Shown here piece by piece: positions 17,366 through 55,110 of a stretch of DNA of 55,110 nt. This DNA comes from an uncultured Bacteroidota bacterium. GTDB lineage: Bacteria; Bacteroidota; Bacteroidia; UKL13-3. A program made the position numbers and the translations under genes. Position 1 is the stretch's first letter, and every line of letters begins with the position of its first letter. The notes beneath the pieces were generated by a model. That model made no database searches, was not told where the DNA came from, and saw only the letters and a list, made by a program, of their open reading frames with translations. Where the stretch lies: positions 1 to 55,110 of the forward strand of contig CAIUQQ010000330.1 in NCBI GenBank assembly GCA_903901345.1, read 5' to 3'.

Positions 17366-17394
17366 GCATTGCACAACCCTGTAAAATATTAGAT

Positions 17395-37785: not shown

Positions 37786-37998
37786 CCGTAATGGCTGCCA
37801 TAAACTGGGGAAATGCTTTTGCACCATAAAAAATTTATATGCAAAGATAGCAAGGGGGGCAACCGCACAAAGCCGACATTAAAAAACCCAAAAGACTACG
37901 GCATAAACACAGACCCACCGCACAAGGCTCTCATTTATTCCGTTTCCTTTTGGTTTTTTTATCCCCCTTGCAGAGAGAAGCATATAAATTATTTCATT

Positions 37999-38232: not shown

Positions 38233-38318
38233 GGCTTTGTTGTTCTCCTTTCGACCATAAACCCACCATAAGGATAGGGTAAAGGCAATATGATTGCCAT
38301 CATAGTTAAAATTGATGC

Positions 38319-38348
38319 AAAAAGAAAAACCCCACCGATTTGGTGAGG
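38319..38348 (-). terminator. Intrinsic terminator of 38379..39185
   Basis: Minus strand CCTCACC-AAATC-GGTGGGG followed by TTTTTCTTTTT. Confidence 0.6.
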
Positions 38349-38378
38349 CTTCCTTTTTTCGATAACCCTGTAAAGTTA

Positions 38379-39185
38379 TTAGAAAATGTCTTGTACTTTC
38401 AAAGAATTACCTGAATTGAACAAGTAGTAGTTTACACCAACTTGTTGATAGAACTCAATACCAATGCAATTCAAAACACTCACATCAGCAGTCATAACAG
38501 GAGAACCTGGCAATGTACTTGTGATGGTGGTTGGCAATGCTACTGGAGTACCTAAGTCAATGTAATTTGAATAAGCAACATTTGAAAGCTCATTTAATGA
38601 AGGATCAATAGGCTCATAAATTCCAGAAGTGGAGTTGAACTCAAAATCCGAAATAACTGAAATTGCACTAATCAATCTGAAGTGAGTGGCACCAGCAGGT
38701 GCATTCACAAAATTAAGCGGATTGAAAGCAGGTACAGTTAAAGTTGCACTATCACGAGCAGGTGTATTTGTAAGCGTATAAGGAGCATAAAAAATACTAT
38801 CCAAGCTGATGTTCTTGTCAAAGTTTAATCCAGTTAAGTACTGTCTTTGAGTTGAAACCAAAATGGCTCTGTAACCCCTTGCTTCGGTTAAGTCTTCCAA
38901 ATTGATTTTTTTCATGATAGCCGTTAAACGGCCTGTAAGCTGCGGGTCACTCATTTGTTTCATCAATTGAGCTAATCCAACACGAACAGATTTTCCAGCT
39001 GAAGCACAGCCACCAAACTCATTCATGTTTTCCCTAGTTCTTTCAAACTCTGGTGCAGTTTTTACTTGTTCACCTGTTGGTCCTCCAACTAAGCCAGCGA
39101 AGTGGCCTTGTAAACCTTTGATTTTAAAGTGGCGAATATCGCCCAATGTTCCTTTGTACTTTAATGGTCCTGATTGACGTGCCAT
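38379..39185 (-). CDS. Conserved Bacteroidota hypothetical protein
   Basis: MARQ.G..K.KGTLG...F, PEFERTRENMNEFG....AGK..R, P.GATHF, GIEFYQ..G...Y: a family pattern I recognise in Bacteroidota, function unknown. Confidence 0.75.
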   Translation of the reverse strand: MARQSGPLKYKGTLGDIRHFKIKGLQGHFAGLVGGPTGEQVKTAPEFERTRENMNEFGGCASAGKSVRVGLAQLMKQMSDPQLTGRLTAIMKKINLEDLTEARGYRAILVSTQRQYLTGLNFDKNISLDSIFYAPYTLTNTPARDSATLTVPAFNPLNFVNAPAGATHFRLISAISVISDFEFNSTSGIYEPIDPSLNELSNVAYSNYIDLGTPVALPTTITSTLPGSPVMTADVSVLNCIGIEFYQQVGVNYYLFNSGNSLKVQDIF

Positions 39186-39279
39186 AATGTTATTTTTTTA
39201 AATGTTTTTTAGTAATAAAATTTAGTGTAAATTTACGCCATAACTTATTGACTATCAACTATTAAAGTAGTGCAAAACA

Positions 39280-39771
39280 ATGTATATAAACGTAAAAGAA
39301 CAGACAATTATAAAAACACACCTAAAAGTTGCCAAAGTGGTGGATGGAGATGGAATAATTGTATCCAATTTATTCAACAAGCAAGAAGAGGAAATTAGAC
39401 TTTTGGGGATTGATGCACCGGAATTAAGAATGTGCAATAAATTGAAACAGGACGAAAGAGAAACCCATATTGCAGGGCAGTTATTAATGGAGCTTGGCAG
39501 AAAGGCTCAAAAATTTATGATTAGTGTTATACCACCCGAAACAAATATCACTTTAGTACAAGAGGAGCAGAGCCAAATTGATGCTTATGGTAGAACCCTT
39601 GCTTATGTATATTTGCCTGATGGGAGTTGCTTAAATGAAATAATGATTGCAGAAGGCTTTGCGAAGCCCTACAATCGCTTTTTTTGCTCAGAACTACCAA
39701 AGTATCAAGAATTGAGCAATACCGCTAAAATCAAGCAAAAAGGGCTATTTTCGATAGTCCAAAACTGGTAA
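39280..39771 (+). CDS. Thermonuclease (SNase) family protein
   Basis: KVVDGDG, IRLLGIDAPE, DAYGRTLAYVY, LNE.MI.EGFA, AK..QKGLF; no signal peptide. Confidence 0.92.
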   Translation: MYINVKEQTIIKTHLKVAKVVDGDGIIVSNLFNKQEEEIRLLGIDAPELRMCNKLKQDERETHIAGQLLMELGRKAQKFMISVIPPETNITLVQEEQSQIDAYGRTLAYVYLPDGSCLNEIMIAEGFAKPYNRFFCSELPKYQELSNTAKIKQKGLFSIVQNW

Positions 39772-39788
39772 AAATTTAAGTTCTGAAA

Positions 39789-39885
39789 TGTTGTACCTAT
39801 GTTGTACCTAATTTGGTATAACATTTACAAAATATTGTATTTCAATACATTATAAAGCTACTTGCGACAAGCTGCTGTTAGGTGT
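39789..39885. repeat. Right attachment region of the element plus the remaining end of the split attC-like site
   Basis: TGTTGTACCT x2 (39789, 39800), TAATTTGGTATAACA (39809), core-type TTGCGACAA, TGCTGTT repeat, GTTAGGTGT (39877-39885). Confidence 0.8.
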
Positions 39886-39905
39886 TCGTGCTTCTTTGTC
39901 AGCGA

Positions 39906-40310
39906 TTATTTATGTCCAGTTATTAAGTCCGACCCTTGGTCAAGAACAAACACAAATTCCGCCTCAGAATTGTCCTTGCTGGATACTAAAATGAGATAAT
40001 TATTATTTTCGGTCTTCATACTTAAAATTTCTAATTCATTCGTCAATGACTTTTCTCTAAAATATTTTAACTCATTAGATTCATTTTCTTTTAGGAAATT
40101 GTCGGACTTGAAATAGTCTGTAATTTTTGTCAAAATTTCTTGCCTCTTAAAGGGGTTTATAAAAGCAAAATGAGGAAAGTAGACAACCTCACTTTCCTTA
40201 TATTTTAAGTTTCCAGAATTTGGAAATGGAATAATTCTATAGCAAAAAATAAATCTTATTACTAAAAGTAAAATGATTGAAATAGCGGTAATAATTAATT
40301 TGTTATTCAT
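39906..40310 (-). CDS. Membrane-anchored small protein, candidate immunity protein
   Basis: N-terminal TM helix; overlaps the stop of the RHS-like gene. Confidence 0.55.
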   Translation of the reverse strand: MNNKLIITAISIILLLVIRFIFCYRIIPFPNSGNLKYKESEVVYFPHFAFINPFKRQEILTKITDYFKSDNFLKENESNELKYFREKSLTNELEILSMKTENNNYLILVSSKDNSEAEFVFVLDQGSDLITGHK

Positions 40311-41409
40311 TTACAGGAGTTGATTTGGTTGTTGACTGAAAACCAGAACCAGTTTTTTGTCCATTTTGGTAAACATTCATTGGATTAGCAGCAGGTGCAG
40401 CCATGGGAGCAAACCACATTGATTCACCGCCTTGACCTTTATTGCCTCCAACCATGTAGGTGTCTCCAATTGCAAAACCAATCATCGGATATGCAGACCT
40501 TGCTATATTTGTTTCTCTTACATTTGGAAAAAACGAGGGAAATGCAGAAGTGGATTGTCCTGCTACATCAACATTCTTGAAATTCGGTAAATCAGATATA
40601 GTTCTTGCAAAAGAACCTTGCCATTGACCACTTGTGCTTAATTCATTTCCTGTATTGCATCCGTAAAAAGTCATGCTTGCATCGTTTTGTTTCCAATTAA
40701 AATCAATGTCGCCCCAACCTTTAGGACTCAATTGGCTTGAACCTATGGCATTTGCACTTGTTGGAACAGTTCCAATTGGGCCTTGTCTTGCGGCATGTGA
40801 CCAAACACCAACTTCCGTAGTTGCTCCGTATTGTTTACTGTATGTGCTTACAGTAGTTTCAACCATTGTTTTTATTTGAGCCATATCAGTAACTTGCAGA
40901 ACTACAACTTTGTCTTTAGCAGGGTCAAAAAATTTACTCCCTTCTATGTTTCGTTGCCTTGTTTGAGCTGCTGCATTAAACATTGCGTCTCCATGCCCGT
41001 TTCCTGTTGTTGCAAAGAGAATATAAATATCTCTACCATCAGGGTCAACTGCTCTTGTTGGCATATTTCCAACAAAGTTATATGGGCTCATTCCTGGATA
41101 ATCTTTTGCATGTGGGTCTGTGCTTAAAAAACGAAGCACAAAAGTTGGAAGCAAACTATCTGTTTTGTAAATAACATTATTGTGGTCAATGTATTCTATT
41201 AACTGTGTTTTTGTATTAAAAGCAATAGTCTTTAACTTTTGTGTTGTATCATTTGTATTAAGAAACAAATATTGCTTTCCGCTTTCTTCTTCGGGAGTTT
41301 TTAAAACTTTACCTTGATAACCGAAAACAGAATATGGGTTATCATTTTGAGCATGAGTTTTGGCGAAGCCAAAACATAATGCAACTAAAATTATTACTGC
41401 TTTTTTCAT
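40303..41409 (-). CDS. Secreted protein with minimal RHS-associated core motif and toxin-like C-terminal domain
   Basis: Signal peptide; RFLSTDP......SPYNFVGNMPTRAVDPDG; downstream WSHA...FYGCNTG. Confidence 0.75.
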   Translation of the reverse strand: MKKAVIILVALCFGFAKTHAQNDNPYSVFGYQGKVLKTPEEESGKQYLFLNTNDTTQKLKTIAFNTKTQLIEYIDHNNVIYKTDSLLPTFVLRFLSTDPHAKDYPGMSPYNFVGNMPTRAVDPDGRDIYILFATTGNGHGDAMFNAAAQTRQRNIEGSKFFDPAKDKVVVLQVTDMAQIKTMVETTVSTYSKQYGATTEVGVWSHAARQGPIGTVPTSANAIGSSQLSPKGWGDIDFNWKQNDASMTFYGCNTGNELSTSGQWQGSFARTISDLPNFKNVDVAGQSTSAFPSFFPNVRETNIARSAYPMIGFAIGDTYMVGGNKGQGGESMWFAPMAAPAANPMNVYQNGQKTGSGFQSTTKSTPVNE

Positions 41410-41421
41410 GTTGCTAATTTA

Positions 41422-42588
41422 TTAGTTTTTATTATTGGTTGTTGTATTTTGTTTTTCAATTTCAACAGATTTTATCCATTGTTCATATAAATCTTGAGGC
41501 ATTTCTCGGTAGCCAAGGTCTTTTATTTGTTTGTCTAATGCTTTAAACTGCTTGTGTGTTGCAATCATTTCAGGTGTGTCTTTTTTTAATCCTTTTTTCT
41601 TTGCGTCCGCTTGTTGCTTTTTACCAATAAATTGTAAGCAATTTTGCTTTGTCATAATAGCTGTAATGCTTGTTGGGTAATGTTTAAGTACAGTGTTACA
41701 ACATTTTAAAACGAAATTATCATAGCCATTGTCTTGTTGATAGCCCATCGCTAAATCCCAAAGGCATAAAGCAACCGATTCTTTTTCTGATAAACCGTCC
41801 ATATAAATCCCTTTCTTTATTGCTTCTGCCGAAATTCCCATTGAAGAAATCATCCAAGCATCGCTTGAAAGGTGTCCGTTTGTAAGTTCAACATTTACCC
41901 ACTTTCCTTTCTCGTCAATATGTTTAATATACATGTGATTTGGGGCAATTGCTAAAAATGATTCGGCTTTAAGTTCGTTTGAAAGTAATTTATAGTAGTA
42001 TGGAAGTCCGTGGCAGTTGCCCGTTTTTGTTTTCATTACTTTGGTTACAAACATGCTTGTCCAGTCTTTGTCGCCTAAAAAGTCGTTGAAATCGTATTTG
42101 AAAACTTGATTGTCATTGAGGTAAGAAGGCTCATACATGTAACTGAAAATTGCATATTGTGCTGCTGTCTTGTAGGAAGCAATTCCTTTTTTGTTTATGT
42201 AGTCGGTTAGCTTTTGAGCAACGGTTGTAAAATGATTTGAAAACTCGGAATAGTTCAATGTCCCTTTTAAATAAGTGTTTTCGTAAATAAAAACAGAACG
42301 TTTGAAGTCTAAAGGCTTTTTGCCTTCTAACATGTCAACGTATTGTTGATATGCACATTCATAAGTAAAGCAGTCAGCCGAATTACTTGATTTTGTAGCC
42401 TTATTTGTGTCGGTAGGAACTGTTACTGTTGGTTGCTCCTTTTCAAATGTCTGCAAACTAGCAGATGTAAATTTGGGTGCTGGGTCATTCAGAACTTGTC
42501 TTGACTTTCCTGTCCCCAAGAAAAAAGCTGTCGCCCCGAACGCTACTGTCAAGGTCGTAACACTTAAAATTAAAATTGTTTTCTTCAT
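41422..42588 (-). CDS. Exported protein with transglutaminase-like (SirB1-type) Cys-His-acid core
   Basis: N-terminal hydrophobic segment; GNCHGLPYYY, APNHMYI, NVELT; helical C-terminus. Confidence 0.65.
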   Translation of the reverse strand: MKKTILILSVTTLTVAFGATAFFLGTGKSRQVLNDPAPKFTSASLQTFEKEQPTVTVPTDTNKATKSSNSADCFTYECAYQQYVDMLEGKKPLDFKRSVFIYENTYLKGTLNYSEFSNHFTTVAQKLTDYINKKGIASYKTAAQYAIFSYMYEPSYLNDNQVFKYDFNDFLGDKDWTSMFVTKVMKTKTGNCHGLPYYYKLLSNELKAESFLAIAPNHMYIKHIDEKGKWVNVELTNGHLSSDAWMISSMGISAEAIKKGIYMDGLSEKESVALCLWDLAMGYQQDNGYDNFVLKCCNTVLKHYPTSITAIMTKQNCLQFIGKKQQADAKKKGLKKDTPEMIATHKQFKALDKQIKDLGYREMPQDLYEQWIKSVEIEKQNTTTNNKN

Positions 42589-42641
42589 TGTCGTTTCGTT
42601 TTACACTGTCCGTTTATGTTTAGCACTGTCGCCATAGCATG

Positions 42642-42777
42642 ACACCTAACGTTTTGTGGGTTTAAGAAGTTGGGGATTTAGGATCAGAAAACATTCAAGC
42701 TACCACAAATGCTGATGCGATGCAGGATGTTCAATTAACCACGAAGCCCGCTTTTTTGCAAAACCCATGTTATGCGT
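42642..42777 (-). repeat. attC-like palindromic site (126 bp from TAAC to GTTA)
   Basis: TAAC (42647)-GTTTT-GTGGGTTT...GGG...CCC...AAACCCAT-GTTA (42772). Confidence 0.8.
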
Positions 42778-43322
42778 TGGCTTTCTCTCCTCGTCAAGTG
42801 TCTGCTGTATGTGATATTCTTGTTCCATTTATTTGTTTGTAAATATATAAATAATTTATCTAAGGGCAATGTGCTTGGGGTGTTACTCATTTTTAGAAGC
42901 GTTTGGCAAAAAGCCAATAAAAAATGCCGTTGAGTTGGGGTAGGGTTGCAAAAATCAAGCTCTTTGCACAGCTTTGGTTGTGCTGTTGGTTCGTGTGACT
43001 GGGCAATGTGCTTAATTTTAGTTTTGGCATGGGTAGCCTTTCTTTAATTTGTCAATTAGTATAAAATTGTCTATGAAAAAACAATGTAAATATAATATTA
43101 CTATTTGTCTTACTGCGTATAGTTTTCTGTCTGCGGATGAGGGGTTTCCTAAAGCGGTTTTATCGTTTCCGTCTGCGGATAATAGATTTGCCAGCTGCGG
43201 CTGAATAATAAAATTGGGCGGTTATCCTTCGACAAGCTCAGGATAAATAGTTTCTTGAAGCGGTTGCCCCGTGTCAAGATGCGGATGATTAATTTTTCTG
43301 TTCGGAAGGATAAAAACTTTAT

Positions 43323-44267
43323 TTATTCTTTAATAAACTTACTCGTATATTTTATGTCTTCATCAATCAATTCAATAAAATATAAGCCCTGTCTTAATTC
43401 TGAAATGTCAATTTGTATATCTTGGCTATTATTAAAGATAGATTGCTTTTCTAATTGTCCCGGCAAGCTATAAATATTTATTTTTAGGGAACTAAAATAA
43501 TTATCCAAACTTATACTTAACTTGTCTTTAGTTGGGTTGGGGTAAATAGCAATTGAATTTTGGTTAACTAAATCCATAACTCCAACATTATCAAAATCGC
43601 AAGGTTTATTTGGATTAGCAAAATTTGATTTAAAGTTGTAATTATTTGAACTGTAACACCGAAGATAGTCTCCACCTTCAGGTATAGCCAATTGCTCAGT
43701 AAGTACTAATAAATCTCTATTATTATCATTGTTGGTATTTATTAAATTTTCAGTATAATAGCCAAAAGGTGAACTATTGCTATAAGGTATTTTATTTTTT
43801 TCAGTTATTGAAAAACTAAAAACTTTTAAACTATCGTTATTCAATACATTTAGCTTTTTATATTCAATTTTTGTGATTTTTACATTAATCTTGATAATGG
43901 TATCTTTATGAATTAAATTTGAATTTGAAAAAAAGCAATCAATTGATATTGTATCATTTATTTTGCAATTTGTTTTAAATAAAGTATTTTTATTTGAGTT
44001 TCTCCAATAGTAAATATAATTCGTATCTTTATTTAGAAATATTGTCCTATCCGTATTATCGTCTTTGGCTAAATAGACGATTTTACTATAAATAATGCTA
44101 TTAATTGTTGTGTCTAAAAGACAAGTATAGGAATAAACCCCTTCAATACTTGTAATACCGCTTGAAGACCTCAGCCCATAATACCACCTTGAACCTACAG
44201 ATGCAAATTGAGCTCTTAACAATGAAGCAAAGAGCAAAGCAAAAATTAAAATATTGTATTTTTTCAT
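43323..44267 (-). CDS. T9SS type A sorting domain protein
   Basis: Signal peptide; IYPNPT...IDISELRQGLYFI...KFIKE. Confidence 0.88.
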   Translation of the reverse strand: MKKYNILIFALLFASLLRAQFASVGSRWYYGLRSSSGITSIEGVYSYTCLLDTTINSIIYSKIVYLAKDDNTDRTIFLNKDTNYIYYWRNSNKNTLFKTNCKINDTISIDCFFSNSNLIHKDTIIKINVKITKIEYKKLNVLNNDSLKVFSFSITEKNKIPYSNSSPFGYYTENLINTNNDNNRDLLVLTEQLAIPEGGDYLRCYSSNNYNFKSNFANPNKPCDFDNVGVMDLVNQNSIAIYPNPTKDKLSISLDNYFSSLKINIYSLPGQLEKQSIFNNSQDIQIDISELRQGLYFIELIDEDIKYTSKFIKE

Positions 44268-45796
44268 AAGAGTATCATTTTTTTATAGAAAGTACCTTTA
44301 TTGTTTTTAATAACTAAAAAAGCAGCACCCGAATAGTTAAAAGTATTTTGAATAGTAATATTTGTTTGATTTGCTTTTAAGTTTTGATAATATAATTCTT
44401 TACCCAAAGCATCAAATATATAAATTTCGTTTGATGAATTAAATAAACTTTGGTTTTTAAAACTAATGGTAAATGATTCTTTTGCAGGATTTGGGTAAAC
44501 TTCTAGTTGTGAGTTGTCATTTAAAATATGTTCTATACCGCCATAAACATTGGGTTTGCAGCCAGGGATAATGCAACCGTTTGTGTCAACTTTTAGTAAC
44601 CAAGCATCGCCTTCAATAGTACCTGTAGAATCAAATTCTTTTATACGATTTTGATTTACTGAAACACCACAGAACAAAAATCCATTATCTATTTTGTAAA
44701 AGTTATGTACTTCGTTATATAAGAAATAATGTTTGTATAAGTGATACCACTCTATCACTCCATTTTCTGGCGATATTTTGCTAAATTGAACAAGCCTTGA
44801 CATTGTATCGTTGACAAAAGTATCGACATCTGCTGTAGCATATAAAGCATTTTTATAAGTTATCATTTTTCTAAATTCATAACTTTGGTATTTATCATAT
44901 ATTTTTTCAAATTTCATATTGCCATTTTCATCTGATACATTTAGGTACGCAAATGTAGCCGTTGCTTTTTGGTAGTTAGATGTAAAACCATAATTGTAAT
45001 AATAGTTATTTATTTTAACACCATTATTTAAATAACCACTAAAATAATATTTTGAAGTATCTGTATAATCATTCTGCCAAAGGATATTGCCATTATTGTC
45101 AATACCTGCATGTGTTATTCTTTGTTGCCCTTCAAAACCTTTTTCCCCAGCTATCAAATAACCATAATTTGTTTTTAACACAGAAGTATAACGACACTGA
45201 AAAGGATATACTTTAAGCCATTTTATATTGAAATCAAAATCAAATAAAGCCACAAAAGCAGGAGAATAAACATAGCTGCCTGTATCGCCTGTAATTATGT
45301 ATCCCTCGTCAGTTTTTAAACAGCTATAAAGTAAATATTTTCTGTAAGGAAAATCTAATTTCTTTACTGTATAATTTTGCCAATTATTACTTGTTGAAAC
45401 CAAAGCATAATATCTTTGTTTATATATACTTAGATAATCGTTATAGGCAGTGTCTAATACTGTGGCGCACATAAACCGATTGTTCTCAATTTCAAAAGGT
45501 ATTCCATAAGTGCTATATATATCCCAATAGTTTTTATGTAAACGACTTACTTCTATTAAAGTAGCATTTTTTAAACAAACTTTATGAAGTAGTATGCGAG
45601 AATAATAATTTGAATCCTTTGCAGTGTCATCAAATACAGTTGTTAATAAAAAAATAGTATCAGAAGAATTGTCAGAATAAATATGAGTGGATGATTTACC
45701 CCCTTTTTCAAAATTAAATAGTGTATCTAAATTAGTTTGCGAGTATAGTGTATATGAGCATGTGCTGAATAAAATAAACAGTAATAAGTATTTCAT
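44264..45796 (-). CDS. T9SS type A sorting domain protein (beta-propeller-like)
   Basis: Signal peptide; D.NGNI.W repeats; DAWLLKVDTNGC; VYPNPA. Confidence 0.88.
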   Translation of the reverse strand: MKYLLLFILFSTCSYTLYSQTNLDTLFNFEKGGKSSTHIYSDNSSDTIFLLTTVFDDTAKDSNYYSRILLHKVCLKNATLIEVSRLHKNYWDIYSTYGIPFEIENNRFMCATVLDTAYNDYLSIYKQRYYALVSTSNNWQNYTVKKLDFPYRKYLLYSCLKTDEGYIITGDTGSYVYSPAFVALFDFDFNIKWLKVYPFQCRYTSVLKTNYGYLIAGEKGFEGQQRITHAGIDNNGNILWQNDYTDTSKYYFSGYLNNGVKINNYYYNYGFTSNYQKATATFAYLNVSDENGNMKFEKIYDKYQSYEFRKMITYKNALYATADVDTFVNDTMSRLVQFSKISPENGVIEWYHLYKHYFLYNEVHNFYKIDNGFLFCGVSVNQNRIKEFDSTGTIEGDAWLLKVDTNGCIIPGCKPNVYGGIEHILNDNSQLEVYPNPAKESFTISFKNQSLFNSSNEIYIFDALGKELYYQNLKANQTNITIQNTFNYSGAAFLVIKNNKGTFYKKMILL

Positions 45797-45810
45797 TTGG
45801 AGAAAATTAA

Positions 45811-45844
45811 ACCGTTCCTTTTGAAAAATTTCAAAAGGAACGGT
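45811..45844. terminator. Intergenic hairpin
   Basis: ACCGTTCCTTTTGAA-AAAT-TTCAAAAGGAACGGT. Confidence 0.55.
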
Positions 45845-45856
45845 AAGTTAGAATTA

Positions 45857-46351
45857 CTATTTATTTACTACTAATTTCTTAACCGAAATCAAATTGTCAT
45901 CTGCTCTTAGCTCTATAAAATATACACCAGCATTTAAAGATTGTAAGTCTATTTCATATTGACCACTCATTTGTTTTAGTTCAATTGCTTTAATAATTGC
46001 ACCTGTAATTGATGTAACAACTATTTTAGCCGATTTATATGGTTTCACAAATAAATAATCACAAGTGGCAAAATTTGTTGCAGGATTAGGATATAAATTT
46101 AGTAAATTATTGTTAGAAGTTGAATTTTTTGTTTCGCTAACGGTGGTTAATTCACTACCTCGTTTGCCCAAACTACTTTCAATTAATACAGGTCTTTCTA
46201 CATAAAATTCATTAAATACCATACCTAATATAGCCTTAGCATAATATGATGTCGTGGTGCTACTTGTTGCTATGTTTCTGACATTTTGTTCCTGACTTGA
46301 GCTTAATTGAAAAACATTTTTGTTTGCTTTTTTCAAATCTAAAAGCTTCAT
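45857..46351 (-). pseudogene. 3' fragment of a T9SS type A gene; its apparent ATG lies within an attC-like remnant
   Basis: No signal peptide; LYPNPA...GVYFI CTD; the start codon abuts the half site at 46343-46394. Confidence 0.65.
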
Positions 46352-46394
46352 TTAACCACTGAACCGCCAATTTCTTGTAGGTGCTGTTAGCGGT
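46343..46394 (-). repeat. Half attC-like site (one arm only)
   Basis: TTAACCAC...CCGCCAATTTCTTGTAGGTGCT-GTTAGCGGT, homologous to the right arms of the other sites; no partner arm. Confidence 0.75.
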
Positions 46395-46417
46395 TCGTTG
46401 TTTTTTGTCGTCAGTTT

Positions 46418-46996
46418 TCATTTAAGGTTTTCTCCCAATTTTTCAATTTTGTCTAACCATTTTTTTCGTAAGGAAAGTTCTGTGTTTTTTATTGGTCCAA
46501 CATAAGTTACCTTAACTGGCTTTATTCCACAAAATTCCAAAGTGGATTTCTTTAACTGGTTAACGCTTGGTCGCCCAAATGCAAACCAATAATACCAAGA
46601 AGGTTGGTCAAGGGTTGTAATAATATGAGCCGTCCTACCTGCTAATAGTTTGTCCCACCACACAGAATTTTCACGATACTGAAATGCAAAGCCCGGTAAA
46701 AAAAGCCTGTCAATAAAACCCTTTGTTACGGCTGGAAGTCCACCCCACCAAACAGGATGAACCCAAACTAAATGGTCAGCCCATTTGATTTTTTCCCAAG
46801 CATCTAATAAGTCAGGTTCTAATTCTGTTCTTTTTTGGTAACCAAATTGCAAGTTTGGATTGAAAACTAAATCTTTAATCACAATCTCCTTAATATCTGC
46901 TCCTGAAGTTAATGCACCTTTTTTGTATGCTTCGAAAAGTCCAAAATTATAACTATCACTGTTTGGGTGTCCGTTTATGATGAGTATATTTTTCAT
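46418..46996 (-). CDS. NAD(P)H-dependent oxidoreductase (flavodoxin-2 / quinone reductase family), single-gene cassette
   Basis: ILIINGHP, ADHLVWVHPVWWGGLPA..KGFIDR, GFAF. Confidence 0.92.
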   Translation of the reverse strand: MKNILIINGHPNSDSYNFGLFEAYKKGALTSGADIKEIVIKDLVFNPNLQFGYQKRTELEPDLLDAWEKIKWADHLVWVHPVWWGGLPAVTKGFIDRLFLPGFAFQYRENSVWWDKLLAGRTAHIITTLDQPSWYYWFAFGRPSVNQLKKSTLEFCGIKPVKVTYVGPIKNTELSLRKKWLDKIEKLGENLK

Positions 46997-47053
46997 TAAA
47001 TGTATTTAGATTATTTGTCTGTTAAATGTTTACTCTGTCGTCTTTTTACAATG

Positions 47054-47189
47054 ACCGCTAACGGTTTGCAGCTACCCGAAGGGCGGGACTTTTACCACAA
47101 AACTTGATTTGAAAAACTAAAGTTTGATTAACCACAAAACTGTCTTTGGAACACGAAACCCCGCCTTTTGGGTAGGTGCTGTTACAAGC
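47054..47189 (-). repeat. Intact attC-like palindromic site (126 bp from TAAC to GTTA)
   Basis: TAAC (47059)-GGTTT-GCAGCTACCCGAAGGGCGGG...CCCGCCTTTTGGGTAGGTGC-T-GTTA (47184). Confidence 0.88.
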
Positions 47190-47328
47190 TGCCCTTCTTT
47201 CGGTCGTGGTTTGTCTGTCCGCTGTGTTGCTCTGTCTGTGCGGTTGGAAAGGCATACTCTTTTGCAAGCTTTGGCTCGTGGGCTGGCTTGTGTGGCTTGC
47301 AAATGTGTATGACTTTAGCGTTGGCATT

Positions 47329-48990
47329 TTATACTGTCAATTTTTTAATGAGTTCAATTAATTTGGTCATTTGAGTTTTGCCTTCGCTGTCGTCATGCAG
47401 GTTGATTAGTTTAGCTGTCTCCCTTGCTATTAAGTTTTTTGAACTGCTACCAAGTGTTTCAATTGTTTGTTTTTCAATGTCGGCATAGTCTGTAAACGAA
47501 GCTCTCATTGTTGTTTCAAAGTCTGTCCCGAATACACAGAAACGGTCAGAGATTGCCCAAGTGTCAATTCCTAAAATTCCGTCCAGTTCTTCGTCTTTGA
47601 TACCAATTGCTTTTAATGCGTCCTTACGTTTAAAACCTTTTTCATCATCCTTTTTATAGTCGTTGTCAAAGCAAATGAAAGTTGGTATTTGATATAAAGT
47701 AAAAAGTCGCCACCATTTTGCAAGATTACCTTTACCGCCAACTCCTATAATTTCAATTCCAAATTCTGTTGGGTCAAAACCAAGTTTTTCAAAATAAATT
47801 GGCAAAGCCAATTCCTCTGTTGGACCTTCAACAAGGACAATTTTATTTGCGAAAAAACCCGATAAAATATGCGATGTAGAATTGTTTGCATAAAATGGCA
47901 CAATGGTTTCTTCCTTTGTCTTGTGTGGATTAGATGCAGTTTTAAGGCAATGGTTATATAATGTAGTAGCGTTTTGGTTTATGTTTAAAGTAGTTTCGGA
48001 ATCTTTGCGAATGAGATTAATACCTTCAATATAATTCAAGTCCACAAAATAAGGGCTGTGTGTTGTTAAGATGATTTGCAAACCATCTTCTGCCATTTTA
48101 AACATCTTTTTTGCTAACCATTTTTGAGCCAAAGGATGCAAATGGGCTTCGGGTTCATCAAGAATAAATAATAAGCCTTGACCTAAAAATGATTTAGCGT
48201 AAGCATGAGCAAAAGACAAAGCCAAAATTTGTTGCTGTCCTGTTCCTAATTCTTCGTAGGCTCTTGTTTCGCCATCTTCGGTAGGGTGGACACGTAAAGT
48301 TTTAAAGTAGTTACTTGGGTCGTATGCCGAAAAATCAAATGCCAAAGCATGGGTCATGTTAGACAAAACTGTATTAGCAATTGAAGACATATTTTCGCTG
48401 AAAACATTAAACTCCTTCACTTCCATGAATGTAGTTTTAATACTTTCAAAAAATCCTTTTAGTTTTTCAACTCTGGCTTTATCGTCTGTTAGCTTGTCGT
48501 GAAAGGCTTTTGTAACTTTTGACAACAACGTGTATTTTGAAGAATAGCTAAGTTGAAAGTTTAAATTTTGTTCTGAATTTACAACAATACAAAGAAGTTC
48601 TTCACGCAAGTTTGTACTTACATACATATTCTCTCTCCCGTCTTCTGCTTGAATTGCGTTGAAATTATTCTCTTTTCCTTTTTGTGCTTGAAATTTAAAG
48701 CCACCGCAAGAAAATTCAGAAGACCTGCCAAGCCTTGCACTAAAGCCAGTAACGGTTGCCTCAACTATTACTTGGTTATTTGTGTCTCTTTTATAATGGT
48801 CGTAATCCTCAAGTTTTTTATACTTCGGGTGAAACTCACCAAACATCAATTCAATTGCACGAATAATATTTGATTTACCTGAATTATTTTCTCCAATTAA
48901 AACCACAGGTTTGTTTTCAGGAAAGTTAATTACTACTTGCTCTGAAATTGAACGGAAACCTTCTATTGTAATTTGTTTTAGTCTTGGCAT
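47329..48990 (-). CDS. OLD-family ATP-dependent nuclease (ABC ATPase + TOPRIM)
   Basis: GFRSI, GENNSGKS, LGTGQQ, LDEPEAHLHP, TTHSP; TOPRIM VLVEGPTE, GGK, FDND. Confidence 0.9.
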   Translation of the reverse strand: MPRLKQITIEGFRSISEQVVINFPENKPVVLIGENNSGKSNIIRAIELMFGEFHPKYKKLEDYDHYKRDTNNQVIVEATVTGFSARLGRSSEFSCGGFKFQAQKGKENNFNAIQAEDGRENMYVSTNLREELLCIVVNSEQNLNFQLSYSSKYTLLSKVTKAFHDKLTDDKARVEKLKGFFESIKTTFMEVKEFNVFSENMSSIANTVLSNMTHALAFDFSAYDPSNYFKTLRVHPTEDGETRAYEELGTGQQQILALSFAHAYAKSFLGQGLLFILDEPEAHLHPLAQKWLAKKMFKMAEDGLQIILTTHSPYFVDLNYIEGINLIRKDSETTLNINQNATTLYNHCLKTASNPHKTKEETIVPFYANNSTSHILSGFFANKIVLVEGPTEELALPIYFEKLGFDPTEFGIEIIGVGGKGNLAKWWRLFTLYQIPTFICFDNDYKKDDEKGFKRKDALKAIGIKDEELDGILGIDTWAISDRFCVFGTDFETTMRASFTDYADIEKQTIETLGSSSKNLIARETAKLINLHDDSEGKTQMTKLIELIKKLTV

Positions 48991-50477
48991 TCTTCCGTTT
49001 TAGTTTCAAAAGTTTCATTGAACATTGCTTTCATTAATGTTTTGCCATGGTTGTCAAGGGTTTCAATTTCTTGACTTAATTTCAGGCATTTGTTCATTAG
49101 CAATTCAACTTTCTCAATTATTATTTTTTGTTCCTCTCTTGGTGGAAGTGCAAAAACAAAATTTCTTAAATAAGTTTGGCTAATGTTTGGTTGCGACATT
49201 CCCCAAGAATCAGAAATCATTTTTGCTCGTTGTGCCATTAAGAAATAGAACAGATATTTTGTTTCTATGAATTCATTAAAAAAGAAACCGCAAATTGCTT
49301 GGTTTGTGCTTGCATCTCTGTTTAAGATTGAAAGTTTCCCTGCCGTTGCTCCATACATTGCTATTAGTAAAGTTCCTTTTGGAAACAATGTTGCAGAAGA
49401 TTCCTTTAAACCAATTTCGGAAATTTTTTCCTCTGATTCTGCATCCAAATAAGTGTCGGTTAATTCGCCTGATTTGTACCAAGTTATGTCGCCAAACCAA
49501 TAGTTTGCATTTGCTCTTAATGGTGTGCCACCAGAAGTTGTTGAATACAACTCACCAAGTCTGCACCAAATCCAACTTTCAGGTAATTTGAACTGAATAT
49601 CTGATTCTGGAATTGGTTCAACCTCTTTTTCTTTCTTTAATTTCCCTTCTTTAACTAACTTTTGTTTTTCGGCTTTAATACGTTTTAGAAGTTCTGTTGC
49701 AGTTTCAGTAAAAGAATTTTGTTTTCTCCATTCTTTAGTGAGTTTACCATTTATAGCTTCAAGAAGAATTGATTGTTTTAATTGTGATACTAGATTTAAT
49801 TGAAAAGAACTTTCAAGTTCAATTTGTTTGCATTGTTCATAATCAGAAATAGCTTTATCTATATCTGAAATTAACTCTTCATACCCTTTGACATACTCAT
49901 TATTTGAAATTTTTATTGCATCTAGTTGTTTTTCCAAACTACATTTCGGCAGTATTAAAGATTTCAATGTATTTGCGTTTACACTAGGTCTAAATTCTCC
50001 TTCATTTAAAGAAACAATTTGTGACCAATAAACATAGCTGTTCAAAAACAGATTTAAAAACAATGGCTCGGCATCTTCATTTGCTCTGATACGAATCAAG
50101 TAGCCAGCATAAATTGAATGCTCTGGTGGGTCTGTGATTAAAAAACTTTTTCCTGTTGTTCCACCTGTCCTTGCAATTAGTAAATCATTTGTGTAAAGCA
50201 GGTATGTATCTTCGCTATCACAATCGCAGAAAGGAACTGTTTCCCAATCCACTTTCCCGTCCGTAATATCACTTATTCGCAGAAATTTATTTTTACCACT
50301 TAACAATGCAGAAGCATTATAACCGTATTGAGTGCTTTCTATTAGTGATTTTAAAGGAACAGTCTTGTTACTTTCTTCAAATAAATGACGTAAAATAATT
50401 GTATTCCTTATTTGCTTTTTTATTTCATCCTCATCTTTTTGAAAAGTAAGTGGAATGAATTTGAATTTTAAACTCAT
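48978..50477 (-). CDS. hsdS: Type I RM specificity subunit
   Basis: Two TRDs; LKQSILLEAINGKLT..WR, LPESWIWCRLGE, SGGTP, PPREEQ..I. Confidence 0.9.
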   Translation of the reverse strand: MSLKFKFIPLTFQKDEDEIKKQIRNTIILRHLFEESNKTVPLKSLIESTQYGYNASALLSGKNKFLRISDITDGKVDWETVPFCDCDSEDTYLLYTNDLLIARTGGTTGKSFLITDPPEHSIYAGYLIRIRANEDAEPLFLNLFLNSYVYWSQIVSLNEGEFRPSVNANTLKSLILPKCSLEKQLDAIKISNNEYVKGYEELISDIDKAISDYEQCKQIELESSFQLNLVSQLKQSILLEAINGKLTKEWRKQNSFTETATELLKRIKAEKQKLVKEGKLKKEKEVEPIPESDIQFKLPESWIWCRLGELYSTTSGGTPLRANANYWFGDITWYKSGELTDTYLDAESEEKISEIGLKESSATLFPKGTLLIAMYGATAGKLSILNRDASTNQAICGFFFNEFIETKYLFYFLMAQRAKMISDSWGMSQPNISQTYLRNFVFALPPREEQKIIIEKVELLMNKCLKLSQEIETLDNHGKTLMKAMFNETFETKTEECQD

Positions 50478-51901
50478 ACACTTAATTCTTTTAGTAAGTC
50501 ACTTATAATTTGTTGGCTTTTTTGAATTTTTGAAAGTATGTCGGCTCTATTGTATTCAATAACCTCTTCAACAATATTTTGGTTTTTTGAATCTAAATCA
50601 AAGTTTTTAAGGTCTTTGATATTTACTTTCCAAGATAAGTTGCTATCAGTTCTATTATTCCACCATTCAATGATTGGCTTGAATTCATCAAATTGAATGG
50701 GTTTTGTTTTAGAATAACTTTTCTGTCCTTCAGGTAGTTTATGTTCGTAATACCAAATATCATTAGTTGGTGCGCCCTTTTCAAAAAACAAAAGATTTGT
50801 TCCTACAATTGCTGGGAAAAATGTGCTTTGCGGAAGTCTTATTATTGTATGCAAATTGCAGTCAGTCAATAATTTTTCTCGGATTCTTGCCTTTACACCT
50901 TCGCCTGTAATTGAACCATCGGGCAATACGATTGCACATCTGCCATTTGGTTTTAATAACTGGATCATAAGAATCACAAACAAGTCTGCCGATTCTTTGC
51001 ATCTATAAGTTGATGGAAAGTTTGTTTCTACTCCGTCCGCTATGCTTGCTCCAAATGGTGGATTTGCAAGGATAACATCAACCTGGTCTTTCTTGCCAAT
51101 GCTGTTGTACTCTTTTTTTAAACTGTCAATGTAATGATAATCGGGAACATCAATTTCGTGAAGTATCAAATTAGTCAAGCCTAATACATAAGCAACTGGT
51201 TTTAATTCCCAACCAGTTATTGAATTTTGTAAAAGTGCTTCGTCATCAACTGTTTTTACATAAGTATCTCTTACGTGGTCAATTGCCGCTGATAAGAAAC
51301 CGCCTGTACCTGCTGCTGGGTCTAAAACTTTTTCGCCCAATTTTGGGTCGGTCATCATTGTCATTAATTGAGTTACGGCTCTTGGCGTATAATATTCGCC
51401 TTTGTTTCCTGCATCTCTTAACTCCTGCAAAATGCTTTCGTAAATATTTCCGAAAACGTGTTTGTCCTCTGATTTTGTAAAGTCAATTTCATTGAGTTTG
51501 TTGATTACCTTTCGCATTTCATAACCACTTTTCATGTAGTTATTTGTGCCATCAAAAACCTCCTTTACTATCATTGCTCGTTTCGGATTTGTTGAGCTTT
51601 TTATTTCTCTTAGTGATAGAAACAGTCCTTTATTTGTCAGTTCGTTGCTATCAATAAAATTTATTAGTTCATCACCAGTAATTCCTTCTGGATTTGTTGC
51701 CCAATTTCTCCATTGAAATTTTTCGGGAATTACAGAAACATAGTTGTCTTTTATTACTTCTAATTCTTGGTCTTTGTCGTCCATTATTTTAAGAAACAAC
51801 ATCCAACCCAATTGCTCTAAACGTTGTGCATCGCCAGAGATTCCTCTGTCTTGCCTCATTATATTTCTTATGTTGCTTATTACTGCACCTACATTTGCCA
51901 T
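50474..51901 (-). CDS. hsdM: Type I RM methyltransferase
   Basis: MRQDRG.SGDAQRLEQL.WMLFLK, GEYYTPR, LDPAAGTGGFL, ANPPFG. Confidence 0.95.
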   Translation of the reverse strand: MANVGAVISNIRNIMRQDRGISGDAQRLEQLGWMLFLKIMDDKDQELEVIKDNYVSVIPEKFQWRNWATNPEGITGDELINFIDSNELTNKGLFLSLREIKSSTNPKRAMIVKEVFDGTNNYMKSGYEMRKVINKLNEIDFTKSEDKHVFGNIYESILQELRDAGNKGEYYTPRAVTQLMTMMTDPKLGEKVLDPAAGTGGFLSAAIDHVRDTYVKTVDDEALLQNSITGWELKPVAYVLGLTNLILHEIDVPDYHYIDSLKKEYNSIGKKDQVDVILANPPFGASIADGVETNFPSTYRCKESADLFVILMIQLLKPNGRCAIVLPDGSITGEGVKARIREKLLTDCNLHTIIRLPQSTFFPAIVGTNLLFFEKGAPTNDIWYYEHKLPEGQKSYSKTKPIQFDEFKPIIEWWNNRTDSNLSWKVNIKDLKNFDLDSKNQNIVEEVIEYNRADILSKIQKSQQIISDLLKELSV

Positions 51902-51904
51902 TTC

Positions 51905-54289
51905 TTATGCCGCTTTATAAAGTTCGTTTTCCAATTCTTTTAATGCTTGTATGTAATTTTCTTTTCCACCAAAAGCATTAATTATTTCGAGTGGTGAACC
52001 TAATTTATTTAATGGGTCAAGTTTTAAAACATCTAAACTTTCAATAGTGAGTAAATCATCATCTGCGTATTTGTCAAGCAAACTTTTGATTACAGATTGT
52101 GCTTTCTCTCCGTATTTAGTAAAGTAGTTTCTTTTCTTCACGTTGTTTGCTCTTTCCTTTCGTGTCAATGGTTTTGCTTCAAAAGCAACATGACAAATCA
52201 AATCAAAAGGGTCAAAGTCTTTTCCGATTTCTTCCTTTAAGGCTTCAAAGAAAATTCCTTGTTGTTCCAATGCTTCAACGATTGCTTTTTTCTTGTCAGC
52301 ATTTTTCCATGAATTCAAAAAGGTTTCAAGCGTTGCGTATTTTTCAATTACATTTTTCTTGGTGTAATCTTTCAGACTTTCGGTAATTATTCGTCCGTCA
52401 GCACCTAAATATTGGACTCGTTCATTTACAATTTTAACTTCAACACCGTTTACTCTTATTTTTTCTCTTGGATTTGGTTCTGCTACTATAAAACCACCAC
52501 CAATTACAGTTGGATATTCAGGCGTAGGAAAAACGACATCACCACCATCAACCACATCAACAATTGGTTCGTCTGTTACTTCATCGTCTGTTCCCGAAAT
52601 ATCGTCATCTTCTGTAATATCTTTAATCATTACAGGGTCGCCATCAAAATTAGGGTCTGCAAAAAGATTGGTTACATTTCTAAAATCCATTATCGTGAAA
52701 TATGTTTTACCATATTCTTCATTAATTCTTGTTCCTCTACCAATAATTTGTTTGAACTCTGTTGGTGAACCGATATTACTATCCAATACAATGAGTTTGC
52801 AAGTTTGAGCATCAACGCCAGTAGTCATTAATTTTGAAGTTGTCGCAATAACAGGATAGCGTTCACTTGGATTTATAAAACTGTCTAATTCTCTTTTCCC
52901 TTCTTCATTGTCGCCTGTAATCTGCATTACATACTTATTGTTTTGAGCAACCAAATCGGCATTGGCGTTAGCCAATGCGGTTCGCATGCCTTCGGCATGC
53001 TCAATGTCAATGCAAAAAACAATTGTCTTTGCGAAACGGTCATTTCCTTTTAAAAATTCCGTTATTTTTCTTGCAACTAATTCTCTTCGTTCATCAACAA
53101 CAATGCTTTTATCAAAGTCAGTTCTGTTGTAAATTCTATCTTCAACAGGATTTCCGTTTTTATCTAAAAAGCCTTTTGTTGGTCGCCAACCTTCCGCATC
53201 AATATCAAGAGTTACTTTAATTACCTTGTAAGGTGCAAGAAAACCATCGTCAATACCTTGTCTTAACGAATAAGTGTAAACTGGTTCACCAAAATAATGA
53301 ATGTTTGAGGTTTCGGTTGTTTCCTTTGGTGTGGCTGTCATACCCAAATGAGTTGCAGTTTTGAAATAGTCTAATATTTCACGCCACTTGCTATCTTCTT
53401 TTGCACTTCCTCTGTGGCACTCATCAACTACAATTAAATCAAAAAATTCAGGACTGAATTGTTTATAAGCATCATCTGATTTACTGTCTGACAAGCCTTG
53501 ATACAAAGCTAAATATACATTGTAAGCGGTGTCAATTTGTTTGTGTTTAATGATTGTCATGGCATCTTTGAAATGCCTGAAATCACCTCTTGCTGTTTGG
53601 TCTATGAGTGAAGTTCTGTCTGCTAGAAACAGAATTCGTTTTTTTGCTCCGCTTTTCCAAAGTCTGTAAATAATTTGAAACGCGGTATAGGTTTTTCCTG
53701 TTCCAGTTGCCATTACTAAAAGAATTCTGTCTTGCTTTTTCGCAACTGCTTCAATAGTTCTGTTAATGGCAATTTGTTGGTAATACCGTGGGGAACGACC
53801 AGAGCCATCTAAAAAATAGTCGGTTGAAACTACGTTTTCAACTTCTTTGTCTTCTATGCCTTTGTATTTTTTATATTTCTCCCAAAGTTGTTCAGGGCTT
53901 GGGAATTCGTCATTTGAAATTTCCGTTTCAATGTCTCCGCTTGTAACTGTTTTGTCGTGGAAATAAAAACCGTCTCCGTTGCTACTAAACACAAAAGGAA
54001 TGTCCAACGTGTTGGCATAACCTAATGCCTGTTGAATTCCAGCTTTTACTGAATGATTGTTGTCTTTTGCCTCAATGATTGCAATAGGTACGTTTGGCTT
54101 ATAAAACAAAATGTAGTCGGCAAATTTCCGTTTTCCTCTTGCTGTAATTTTACCCTTCACATAAATGCGTCCGTCAGTAAAAAATATTTCACGTCCAAGT
54201 TGAGTGTGTTCGTCCCAACCCGCCTTTGTCACGGCAGGAGTGATAAACTTCTCTTTTATGTCGGCTTCTGATAAGTCCTTTTTGTTCAT
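51905..54289 (-). CDS. hsdR: Type I RM restriction subunit (EcoAI/EcoEI-like)
   Basis: ADYIL...IIEAK, MATGTGKT, DECHRGSA, MTATP, TGVDA, QIIGRGTR, DPFDLICHVAF. Confidence 0.95.
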   Translation of the reverse strand: MNKKDLSEADIKEKFITPAVTKAGWDEHTQLGREIFFTDGRIYVKGKITARGKRKFADYILFYKPNVPIAIIEAKDNNHSVKAGIQQALGYANTLDIPFVFSSNGDGFYFHDKTVTSGDIETEISNDEFPSPEQLWEKYKKYKGIEDKEVENVVSTDYFLDGSGRSPRYYQQIAINRTIEAVAKKQDRILLVMATGTGKTYTAFQIIYRLWKSGAKKRILFLADRTSLIDQTARGDFRHFKDAMTIIKHKQIDTAYNVYLALYQGLSDSKSDDAYKQFSPEFFDLIVVDECHRGSAKEDSKWREILDYFKTATHLGMTATPKETTETSNIHYFGEPVYTYSLRQGIDDGFLAPYKVIKVTLDIDAEGWRPTKGFLDKNGNPVEDRIYNRTDFDKSIVVDERRELVARKITEFLKGNDRFAKTIVFCIDIEHAEGMRTALANANADLVAQNNKYVMQITGDNEEGKRELDSFINPSERYPVIATTSKLMTTGVDAQTCKLIVLDSNIGSPTEFKQIIGRGTRINEEYGKTYFTIMDFRNVTNLFADPNFDGDPVMIKDITEDDDISGTDDEVTDEPIVDVVDGGDVVFPTPEYPTVIGGGFIVAEPNPREKIRVNGVEVKIVNERVQYLGADGRIITESLKDYTKKNVIEKYATLETFLNSWKNADKKKAIVEALEQQGIFFEALKEEIGKDFDPFDLICHVAFEAKPLTRKERANNVKKRNYFTKYGEKAQSVIKSLLDKYADDDLLTIESLDVLKLDPLNKLGSPLEIINAFGGKENYIQALKELENELYKAA

Positions 54290-54453
54290 GTTCTACTTTT
54301 TATTGTCGGTCGGTGCGGTGGCAAAATTTAGCTCTTTTGGTTTTGCGAAGCGTTGGCTTGTGTGTCGGGCAAAACCAAATGTGCTAAATGTGCGGCTGGC
54401 TTTTATGTCGTTTTTCTGTCTGTTCATGTTTACCACTGTCGTCTTTTAGGGTT

Positions 54454-54535
54454 GCTTGTAACTTGTTTATATAGGAATGTTTAACCCTAAAACCTTCCTA
54501 TGTCTATCCAAAATTGGGTTGTTTTAGGAATGTTT
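54454..54535 (-). other. attI-like primary recombination site heading the cassette array
   Basis: Minus strand ...TATAAACAA-GTTACAAGC with no upstream palindromic arm; direct repeats TAGGAATGTTT (54472, 54525) and an inverted copy (54490-54500). Confidence 0.65.
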
Positions 54536-54542
54536 CTATATT

Positions 54543-54573
54543 CAAACATACCTATTATTTTTATATATCCAAA
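54543..54573 (-). promoter_or_regulatory. Bacteroidota housekeeping promoter firing into the array (Pc-like)
   Basis: Minus strand TTTG-N19-TATGTTTG matches the -33/-7 consensus and spacing. Confidence 0.7.
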
Positions 54574-54769
54574 TCTTCAATTGGACTTTTTATTTCACTT
54601 ATTTATTACCCAATTAAAAATCAAAGTTAACCAATAATTTTATGCTTTTAGGTAGAATTCAAAATAAATAATAATACTATGTTTACGTAATCTAAAGCAT
54701 TCTTCTCTTAAAAGGTAATATTTACTTCATTTTGGGGTAAGTTTTGGGATTTTACGCTTAAAAGTCCAT

Positions 54770-55043
54770 TTTTCCACCCAGCAAAGGAGCTTTTCCACCC
54801 AGCAAAGGAGCTTTTCCTCCCAGCAAAGGAGCAAATTCCACCAGTATTGGAGCAAATTCCACCAGCAAAGGAGCAAATTCTACCAGCATTGGAGCAAATT
54901 CCACCAGCATTGGAACAGATTCCACCCAGCAAAGGAGCTTTTCCTCCCAGCAAAGGAGCAAATTCCACCAGCATTGGAGCAAATTCTACCAGCATTGGAA
55001 CTTTTCTTCCCTACAAAATTCCTTTTCCTCCTTACAAAGGAAA
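54770..55043. repeat. 21-bp tandem repeat (about 11 good and 2 degenerate units)
   Basis: Units TTTTCC(A/T)CCCAGCAAAGGAGC and AAATTC(C/T)ACCAGCATTGGAGC; one 22-bp unit. Confidence 0.9.
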
Positions 55044-55110
55044 ATTTCTTGCTGGCATTTATAATTTTACTAAAGAAAAAACACTATTAATTATTTGAAA
55101 AAAGAGTAAG

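Follow-up and report, generated by a model that had tools for sequence, protein, structure and literature searches.

The window analysed here is one complete contig (C330) of 55,110 nt from a low-GC (guanine plus cytosine) metagenome bin of 414 contigs. On its minus strand, a short stretch lies between the truncated 3' end of a tyrosine recombinase gene and an array of gene cassettes. Judged from its sequence and from comparison with relatives, this stretch (54459-54577) is very probably an attI-type primary recombination site, together with the cassette promoter, of a chromosomal integron-like platform in a freshwater member of the Bacteroidota. Its parts, in minus strand order, are as follows.

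54599-54561 (-), recombinase gene stub: last 12 codons and stop, translated as SEIKSPIEDLDI plus stop, matching the 3' end of the gene on contig C91 of a congener (G016)
54573-54570 (-), -33-like TTTG, inside the last codons of the stub
54554-54544 (-), box B', TAGGTATGTTT: inverted copy of the 11-mer with 1 mismatch, overlapping the -7 box
54550-54543 (-), -7 box, TATGTTTG: Bacteroidetes/Flavobacterium type TAnnTTTG, directed into the array
54535-54525 (-), box A, AAACATTCCTA: direct exact copy, 53 nt 5' of box C
54518-54508 (-), central palindrome, CCCAATTTTGG, between the two box pairs
54500-54490 (-), box B, TAGGAAGGTTT: inverted copy, 1 mismatch to the reverse complement
54482-54472 (-), box C, AAACATTCCTA: direct exact copy, core-proximal
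54471-54459 (-), conserved core, TATAAACAAGTTA: crossover at G(54462)/TT, placed from homology breakpoints

A sequence-only reading of the window had described two 11-bp direct repeats and one inverted copy here, and all three were located as boxes A, C and B. The fourth, box B', was absent from its list. Boxes B and C form an 11-7-11 inverted repeat. Directly 3' of the boxes the junction reads TATAAACAA/GTTACAAGC; the core read through the cassette start is TATAAACAAGTTACAAGC (54471-54454), with the G of GTT at 54462. CCAAnnTTGG-like motifs stand at the position equivalent to the central palindrome in paralogues and relatives. Allowing one mismatch at most, 5 matches to the 11-mer are found in the 55 kb of the window (2.67 expected). 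As 10/100 shuffles also reach 5, this count alone is not unusual. The 11-mer is unusual in its clustering, with 4/5 matches inside 83 nt. No Rfam family matches the site; the sole match above the gathering threshold in 36000-55110 is the Flavo-1 RNA described below.

The crossover point was placed where homology stops, and this anatomy and homology are directly supported by the alignments. The congener carries the same site behind an intact gene for a 347-aa tyrosine recombinase, whose C-terminal end is KKISEIKSPIEDLDI. Between the final codons of the recombinase gene and GTTA, boxes included, the window and the congener contig show 1 visible difference in about 145 nt; they are unrelated 5' of about 54603 and 3' of GTTA. 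Positions 1-119 of C310, a contig of the same assembly, are 100% identical to 54577-54459. Here too homology ends after GTTA, and a different cassette follows with its own attC at 1980-2115. Three different first cassettes are found behind near-identical sites (window, C310 and congener). The expectation from the sequence-only reading that conservation would break exactly at the GTT was borne out in both comparisons, and the continuous homology across 54462 that would have spoken against it was looked for in relatives and not found.

The same boundary was seen from the cassette side. Contigs from three other studies (runs X2, X3 and X15) match the restriction-modification (RM) cassette that follows the site up to 54462, then pass into attC-like 3' halves. 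The comparison covers only those parts of the cassette that lie on contigs. Reverse-complemented, the loose end in X15 equals the 3' terminus of the C187 attC. Because these contigs switch to attC halves at 54462, the RM cassette is a discrete unit bounded by GTT, and elsewhere it thus occupies an internal place in an array, its boundary unchanged. In the window, the first 9 nt of cassette 1, GTTACAAGC, recur as the reverse complement GCTTGTAAC at 47189-47181, the start of its attC. These observations directly support the cassette boundaries. Together with the congener and C310 comparisons, they uphold the earlier proposal of a primary insertion site at the head of the array. That reading had also noted that no palindrome arm precedes the first cassette, and had named a decayed attC arm as the finding that would overturn it. 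A covariance model of attC, run without filters, has zero matches in 54463-55110.

Relatives were obtained by scanning one genome per species, which gave at least 584 confirmed cases, and the best 80 were examined. These belong to Flavobacterium, Pedobacter, Chryseobacterium, Kaistella, Algoriphagus, Chitinophaga and many uncultured Bacteroidota. Counts of the attI site refer to the 70 loci among the best 80 with at least 150 nt after the stop codon. A core of the form ATA-N4-AGTT[AG] was found 50-215 nt after the stop in 60/70 loci, against 11/1548 control windows. Its median distance from the stop is 100.5 nt, and in the window it is 101 nt, which directly supports a constant position downstream of the recombinase gene. 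In 25/60 loci the core is adjoined by an inverted repeat of at least 8/10 (6% of shuffles), and a direct upstream copy of the core-proximal arm is present in 22/60 (4.8% of shuffles). Both reach 8/10 in 15 loci, and in 13/15 of these the copy stands at -57 to -60 relative to the G. The box sequences vary by lineage (for example ATCAGGGTTAT, ATGAGACCTAT and TGCATCC) with the layout conserved. A downstream stretch of at least 800 nt was available for 47 loci, made up of 40 of the best 80, six sites in the own genome and the congener. In 32/47 of these, the window included, the opening 9 nt of the first cassette recur downstream as their reverse complement, compared with 88/2162 (4.1%) for control 9-mers. 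In four loci (L057, L061, L073 and L075) a small gene (MN/S.IKLFESK.IRSVWNE...) follows the recombinase stop and replaces the attI core. Two of them, L073 and L075, have attC matches further downstream of the small gene.

The promoter motif reported by the sequence-only reading, about 80 bp 5' of the array, is present as an exact TTTG-N19-TAnnTTTG. The spacing from TTTG to TATGTTTG is 19 nt, and the -7 box lies 81-88 nt 5' of GTT. TAnnTTTG agrees with the -7 consensus given for Flavobacterium and Bacteroides in the available text of PMC7641319. Among the 70 family loci, 28 have TAnnTTTG within 50 nt after the recombinase stop, compared with 1/70 control windows.

The partner of an attI site is attC, and a covariance model of the latter (R1) was built from an alignment of 19 elements collected from relatives. 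The consensus hairpin has 17 pairs, with compensatory changes in 17/17, which directly supports the structure, and the AAC and GTT end columns are invariant. The spacing between R and L boxes is 1 nt on one side and 5 nt on the other, there is a recurrent mismatch in the L stem, and a conserved mispair occupies the expected bulge position. The bottom strand folds better in 15/19 attCs (mean -22.9 vs -20.3 kcal/mol; Wilcoxon p 0.004 on sequences that are non-independent). For the attC at 47054-47189 the values are -23.1 (bottom) and -17.1 kcal/mol (top).

R1 has 19 matches in the own genome. Same-strand matches lie downstream of the site in seven contigs (C330, C310, C187, C9, C212, C147 and C311). 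In the 80 family loci, 62/62 matches are on the recombinase strand and 61 are downstream of the gene, in direct support of co-orientation; 18/62 are training sequences. The training sites of the model had been identified by the cassette-start rule, towards which counts on training loci therefore lean. BLAST of two attC sequences against the own genome returned only fragments. A crude scan with a regular expression and a stem search was dropped as non-specific (2681 genome matches vs 5696 in a reversed-sequence control). One attC (L042:4790-4925), from a bin labelled Chryseobacterium, is almost identical to 47054-47189 in its inner part and has different R boxes. This likeness suggests that cassettes or attC types are exchanged between genera.

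Behind the site the window holds the following, with genes assigned by Pfam and PADLOC.

54461-47062 (-), cassette 1, 7.4 kb, in first position: 172-nt leader, type I RM operon, OLD-family nuclease, attC
54289-51905 (-), hsdR (type I)
51901-50474 (-), hsdM
50477-48978 (-), hsdS
48990-47329 (-), OLD-family ATPase/TOPRIM nuclease
47189-47054 (-), attC of cassette 1: R'' GCTTGTAAC ... R' GTTAGCGG, a 136-nt imperfect hairpin; R1 107.9 bits, a training sequence
46394-46274 (-), weak attC candidate; R1 18.1 bits
42777-42642 (-), attC; R1 38.5 bits, E 2e-7
17218-17083 (-), attC beyond an integrative element; R1 87.3 bits, outside the training set

By integron logic, the RM cassette in first position would be the newest acquisition, as the sequence-only reading proposed. 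The second unit begins with GTTAGCGGT from the end of the cassette 1 attC, and ACCGCTAAC is found 3' of its sole gene. Another unit begins with GTTAGGTGT at 42645, and its closing element ACACCTAAC is at 39887. An integrative, probably conjugative, element interrupts the array, with approximate ends at 17300 and 39860. It cuts the attC starting at 39887, and GGTACAACAT-like repeats occur at both of its ends. The element carries an integrase with an Arm-DNA-bind_5 domain (17326-18612, plus strand), the Flavo-1 RNA (36033-36105, minus strand, 63.8 bits), a DUF6943 protein and a protein kinase. The array resumes at the attC 17218-17083 and continues to about 16400. With 3-4 attC matches to our own model and no intact family recombinase on the contig, the array is of the kind termed a cluster of attC sites lacking an integron integrase (CALIN).

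Several array genes (within 43323-46351 and 16456-16863, minus strand) encode proteins with Por_Secre_tail, the C-terminal sorting domain of type IX secretion, and secreted or surface proteins therefore travel as cassettes. Directly after GTTA, cassettes have a T-poor leader rich in GACAG, GACGAC and ACAGAC (for example AAAAGACGACAGTGGTAAACATGAACAGACAG). Such stretches lie at 54290-54450, 47003-47046 and 42590-42640 in the window and in many related loci. A second conserved stretch, AGCACATT...CAAAGC..GCAAA.GAGC, occurs at 54390-54300, 47320-47240 and 43010-42940. Rfam has no family for the leader or for the second stretch.

Upstream of the site only the end of the recombinase gene is left. 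The sequence-only reading had found no recombinase in the remaining ~540 bp and had placed it either beyond 55110 or in trans. Both statements must be revised, since the 12-codon stub of a tyrosine recombinase gene lies at 54599-54561 and the gene was truncated in place. Homology of the stub to the congener gene breaks off at about 54603. Searches of the whole assembly with tblastn and TIGR02249 found no intact family gene. They returned only the 12-codon stub, a 34-aa remnant on C9 that precedes another attI-like site, and two unrelated recombinases (C344 and C235). About nine attI-like sites are present in this genome (C330, C310, C187, C316, C9, C212, C147, C311 and C398), and all those outside the window have at most a short recombinase remnant 5' of them. 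As the genome is a bin, copy number, linkage past 55110 and the absence of the gene are provisional. A 687-nt contig from run X4, which stops at the junction, is identical to the window over 54459-54636. Unless X4 has the same source, the truncated arrangement is thus supported outside the present assembly too.

The sequence that replaces the gene is a multi-copy module (54604-55110). It includes a 21-bp tandem repeat of 10.5 copies at 54772-54994 (no strand assigned), itself multi-copy in the genome, and contig C330 ends at 55110 inside the multi-copy repeat. Other copies are at C212:311-825, C375:7788-8254, C382:1-625 and C44:13961-14057. The C212 copy has 86% identity and the same junction to the stub, and it also lies 5' of an attI-like site, where the gene is truncated as in the window and the boxes are visibly degraded. 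The module thus replaces the recombinase gene at two attI sites via an identical junction. Parts of it form the ends of C375, C382 and C44, and four contigs in all end within it. The number of tandem repeats varies, with units such as TTCCACCCAGCAAAGGAGCTT and ATTCCACCAGCATTGGAGCAA. The module was not found in 18 further genomes of the genus, whose matches are confined to the first 48 nt (the gene end). In the 21-bp repeats every frame is open throughout, and neither a start nor a family was found.

The enzyme that serves this site can be examined in relatives. NF040815 ("site-specific tyrosine recombinase/integron integrase") is the best model, with 209.7 and 231.2 bits at a cut-off of 220. 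TIGR02249 (integron integrase) gives 202.2 and 207.6 bits, both below its curated cut-off of 265. It aligns in two stretches, with model positions 180-237 unmatched. Against solved structures the sequence scores 145 bits with archaeal XerA (4A8E) and 112 bits, in two pieces, with VchIntIA (2A3V). Where VchIntIA has 70 residues the relatives' enzyme has 28. A predicted structure (mean predicted local distance difference test score, pLDDT, 84.8) is likewise nearer to 4A8E (Z 23.4) than to 2A3V (Z 18.6); the VIA alignment to 2A3V covers 255/313 chain residues. R202, K227, H292, R295, H318 and Y327 are invariant across 43 sequences, and we read these six residues as the tyrosine recombinase catalytic set (R, K, HxxR, H, Y). 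Because of the TIGR02249 gap, the 28 vs 70 residues and the closer match to XerA than to VchIntIA, the IntI-specific domain near patch III is absent from the intact protein of relatives, the window itself keeping 12 codons. The family is Xer-like, is read into the array and is without the IntI-specific insertion.

The enzyme has an extra N-terminal domain of about 66 residues that folds confidently (pLDDT 80.3). Searches of solved structures gave no clear relative for this domain. The best VIA match has Z 4.6 with a root mean square deviation of 3.0 over 60 residues. The best Foldseek match, to a HARP domain, has E 0.38, and in a whole-protein search residues 1-60 were aligned in no row. Weak rows to the N-terminal domains of HARP, XPB and UvsW are leads only. 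An arm-binding role for the domain was considered and dropped for want of a clear solved relative.

A working model of the site can be put together from these parts. In the intact layout, represented by the congener, the gene for the 347-aa recombinase is read towards the array. Its last codons overlap a TTTG-N19-TAnnTTTG promoter motif, with the core TATAAACAA/GTTA about 100 nt after the stop. The four copies of a lineage-specific 11-mer 5' of the core form two inverted pairs around the small palindrome. By analogy with the four IntI1 sites of attI1, recombinase molecules may bind at the core and at the four boxes, with the palindrome as a possible site for a host factor. One strand exchange at G/TT, with the folded and probably bottom strand of the attC of a circular cassette, would place the new cassette first, behind the promoter. 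The promoter would start transcription near 54536; with box B' occupied, expression of the cassettes could become linked to the recombinase. Box binding, strand choice, promoter activity and present-day activity are inferred. In the window the platform is orphaned, with 12 codons left and the rest replaced by the 21-bp-repeat module, and further insertion here would need a recombinase supplied in trans.

Several points weigh against an attI-type site with its promoter. The evidence for recombination and transcription is all comparative. Of the sampled loci, only about 40% show a clear arrangement of boxes, and the strict -7 motif is present in only 28/70. Related loci are non-independent, and the counts therefore overstate the support. 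C310 is possibly a strain variant and not a second copy. The bin is fragmented into 414 contigs, and an intact recombinase may sit on an unbinned contig. Box C ends 9 nt short of GTT, so the 11-7-11 inverted repeat does not contain the crossover, unlike a classical core site. Finally, the recombinase at homologous sites is without the IntI-specific insertion and is below the NCBIfam cut-off, and its handling of folded attC is putative.

The alternative that survives best is that the site is a relic only: a former attI of a dead platform that now serves as promoter and 5' leader of the RM operon, with the array a frozen, CALIN-like fossil. We consider this quite possible, though short of an even chance. 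The assembly holds no intact cognate recombinase, none of its roughly nine attI-like sites has one, and the C212 paralogue with the same truncation has visibly degraded boxes. The insertion of the integrative element into the array has also been tolerated. Against this, the four boxes and the core are intact in the window and nearly identical to those of the congener with its intact gene, and an identical site on C310 has another first cassette. In a fragmented bin a trans-acting gene may simply be missing from the assembly.

A purely regulatory region, in which the boxes are transcription-factor operators and the conservation reflects 3' regulatory signals of the recombinase gene, is unlikely. 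Box B' does overlap the -7 box, the putative start and the first gene flank the boxes, and the promoter motif is enriched after the stop (28/70 loci vs 1/70 controls). This account leaves unexplained why homology ends exactly at GTTA in three comparisons, why GTT-bounded cassettes stand behind attC sites elsewhere, and why the cassette carries its first 9 nt again, inverted, at its end. A regulatory role is also compatible with recombination, the two not being exclusive. It is very improbable that the stretch is a decayed attC or the terminus of some other mobile element, be it a transposon or the neighbouring integrative element with its att site. In favour are the inverted repeats and the GTT of the stretch, and the presence in the window of an integrative element that encodes its own integrase. 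Against it, the attC model has no match upstream of 54462, the core stands at a constant distance from the stop codon of a single recombinase family in 60/70 loci (median 100.5 nt), and the element ends at about 17300 and 39860, about 15 kb away.

An attI-type site can be compared with the known systems. In attI1 of class 1 integrons a simple site is accompanied by the direct repeats DR1 and DR2 and by the promoter Pc. The site described here resembles it in being a unique site by a recombinase gene at the array head, with a putative promoter into the first cassette, a G/TT crossover after an A-rich ...AAACAA and several repeated boxes 5' of the core. It differs in lying behind the 3' end of a co-oriented gene, while attI1 lies beside the 5' end of a divergent one. 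It also has four 11-mers as two inverted pairs around a palindrome and a predicted -33/-7 promoter of the Bacteroidetes type overlapping the stop codon, and sequence similarity is limited to the short core. The binding sites of attI1 are named S1, S2, DR1 and DR2 in the available text of 10.1101/2022.02.06.479319.

The enzyme shares with IntI (TIGR02249; VchIntIA, 2A3V) the simple Xer-like tyrosine recombinase class and a C-terminal ...LGH..TT.IYTHV....SP.. tail, and in both cases arrays are bounded by folded attC. Unlike IntI, the family enzyme is below the cut-off, is without the insertion, is nearer to archaeal XerA and has the extra N-terminal domain of about 66 residues. Xer core sites consist of 11-nt inverted arms with a short spacer. 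Boxes B and C, as 11-nt arms with a 7-nt spacer, are like Xer/dif core sites, and the enzyme is Xer-like. The present site differs in its crossover, which lies 9-10 nt outside the repeat formed by B and C, and in its partner, a folded hairpin. In Treponema, the integron integrase gene is oriented towards the array. These "inverted" integrons and the putative archaeal integrons are alike in having gene and cassettes co-directed and attI just 3' of the gene, but their integrases have the IntI-specific domain (carried by archaeal integron integrases according to the available text of 10.1101/2022.02.06.479319), which the present family is without. Like a CALIN, the array is without an integrase gene; here, by contrast, the attI and its putative promoter persist, and a 12-codon stub is what is left as pseudogene. 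In the available text of Cury et al. 2016 (PMC4889954), intI pseudogenes were found near 15/279 CALIN.

The site is attI by function and layout, while its sequence and architecture match no described attI that we found. We file it as a variant outside the known integron classes because its partner enzyme lacks the domain that defines IntI. As far as their available texts go, surveys select integron integrases by the IntI-specific domain (PMC4889954, PMC2426708, 10.1101/2022.02.06.479319). With IntI defined by this additional domain, platforms of the present kind would be recorded as plain XerD-like genes, at best with CALINs in addition. For Bacteroidetes, the available part of the IntegronFinder 2.0 paper mentions only In0 elements from earlier work and one complete integron, in Salinibacter. 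Literature searches, with most subscription journals and supplements outside their reach, found no description of a Bacteroidota cassette platform with an Xer-like integrase. The NCBI name of NF040815 already includes "integron integrase". Tentatively, and at close to even chances though slightly below them, we propose that the window is an orphaned copy of an unrecognised, phylum-wide class of Bacteroidota integron, characterised by an Xer-like recombinase that is read into the array and has an N-terminal domain of its own in place of none of the IntI-specific one, which it lacks, by a multi-box attI with boxes that co-vary with lineage, and by an attC of ~136 nt.

The available part of a 2024 preprint states that defence cassettes of integrons tend to be compact and that long loci (CRISPR-Cas, BREX) are absent. 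Here a whole type I RM system plus an OLD nuclease appears to move as a single 7.4-kb cassette. If the proposed class is real, cassettes would be captured by way of folded attC without the IntI insertion, and integron-type capture would be common in the Bacteroidota. If such platforms are active, the known range of integron-type gene capture would widen, a defined attI with its boxes, core and promoter would be ready for experiments, and the need for the insertion in reading a folded attC would be directly testable.

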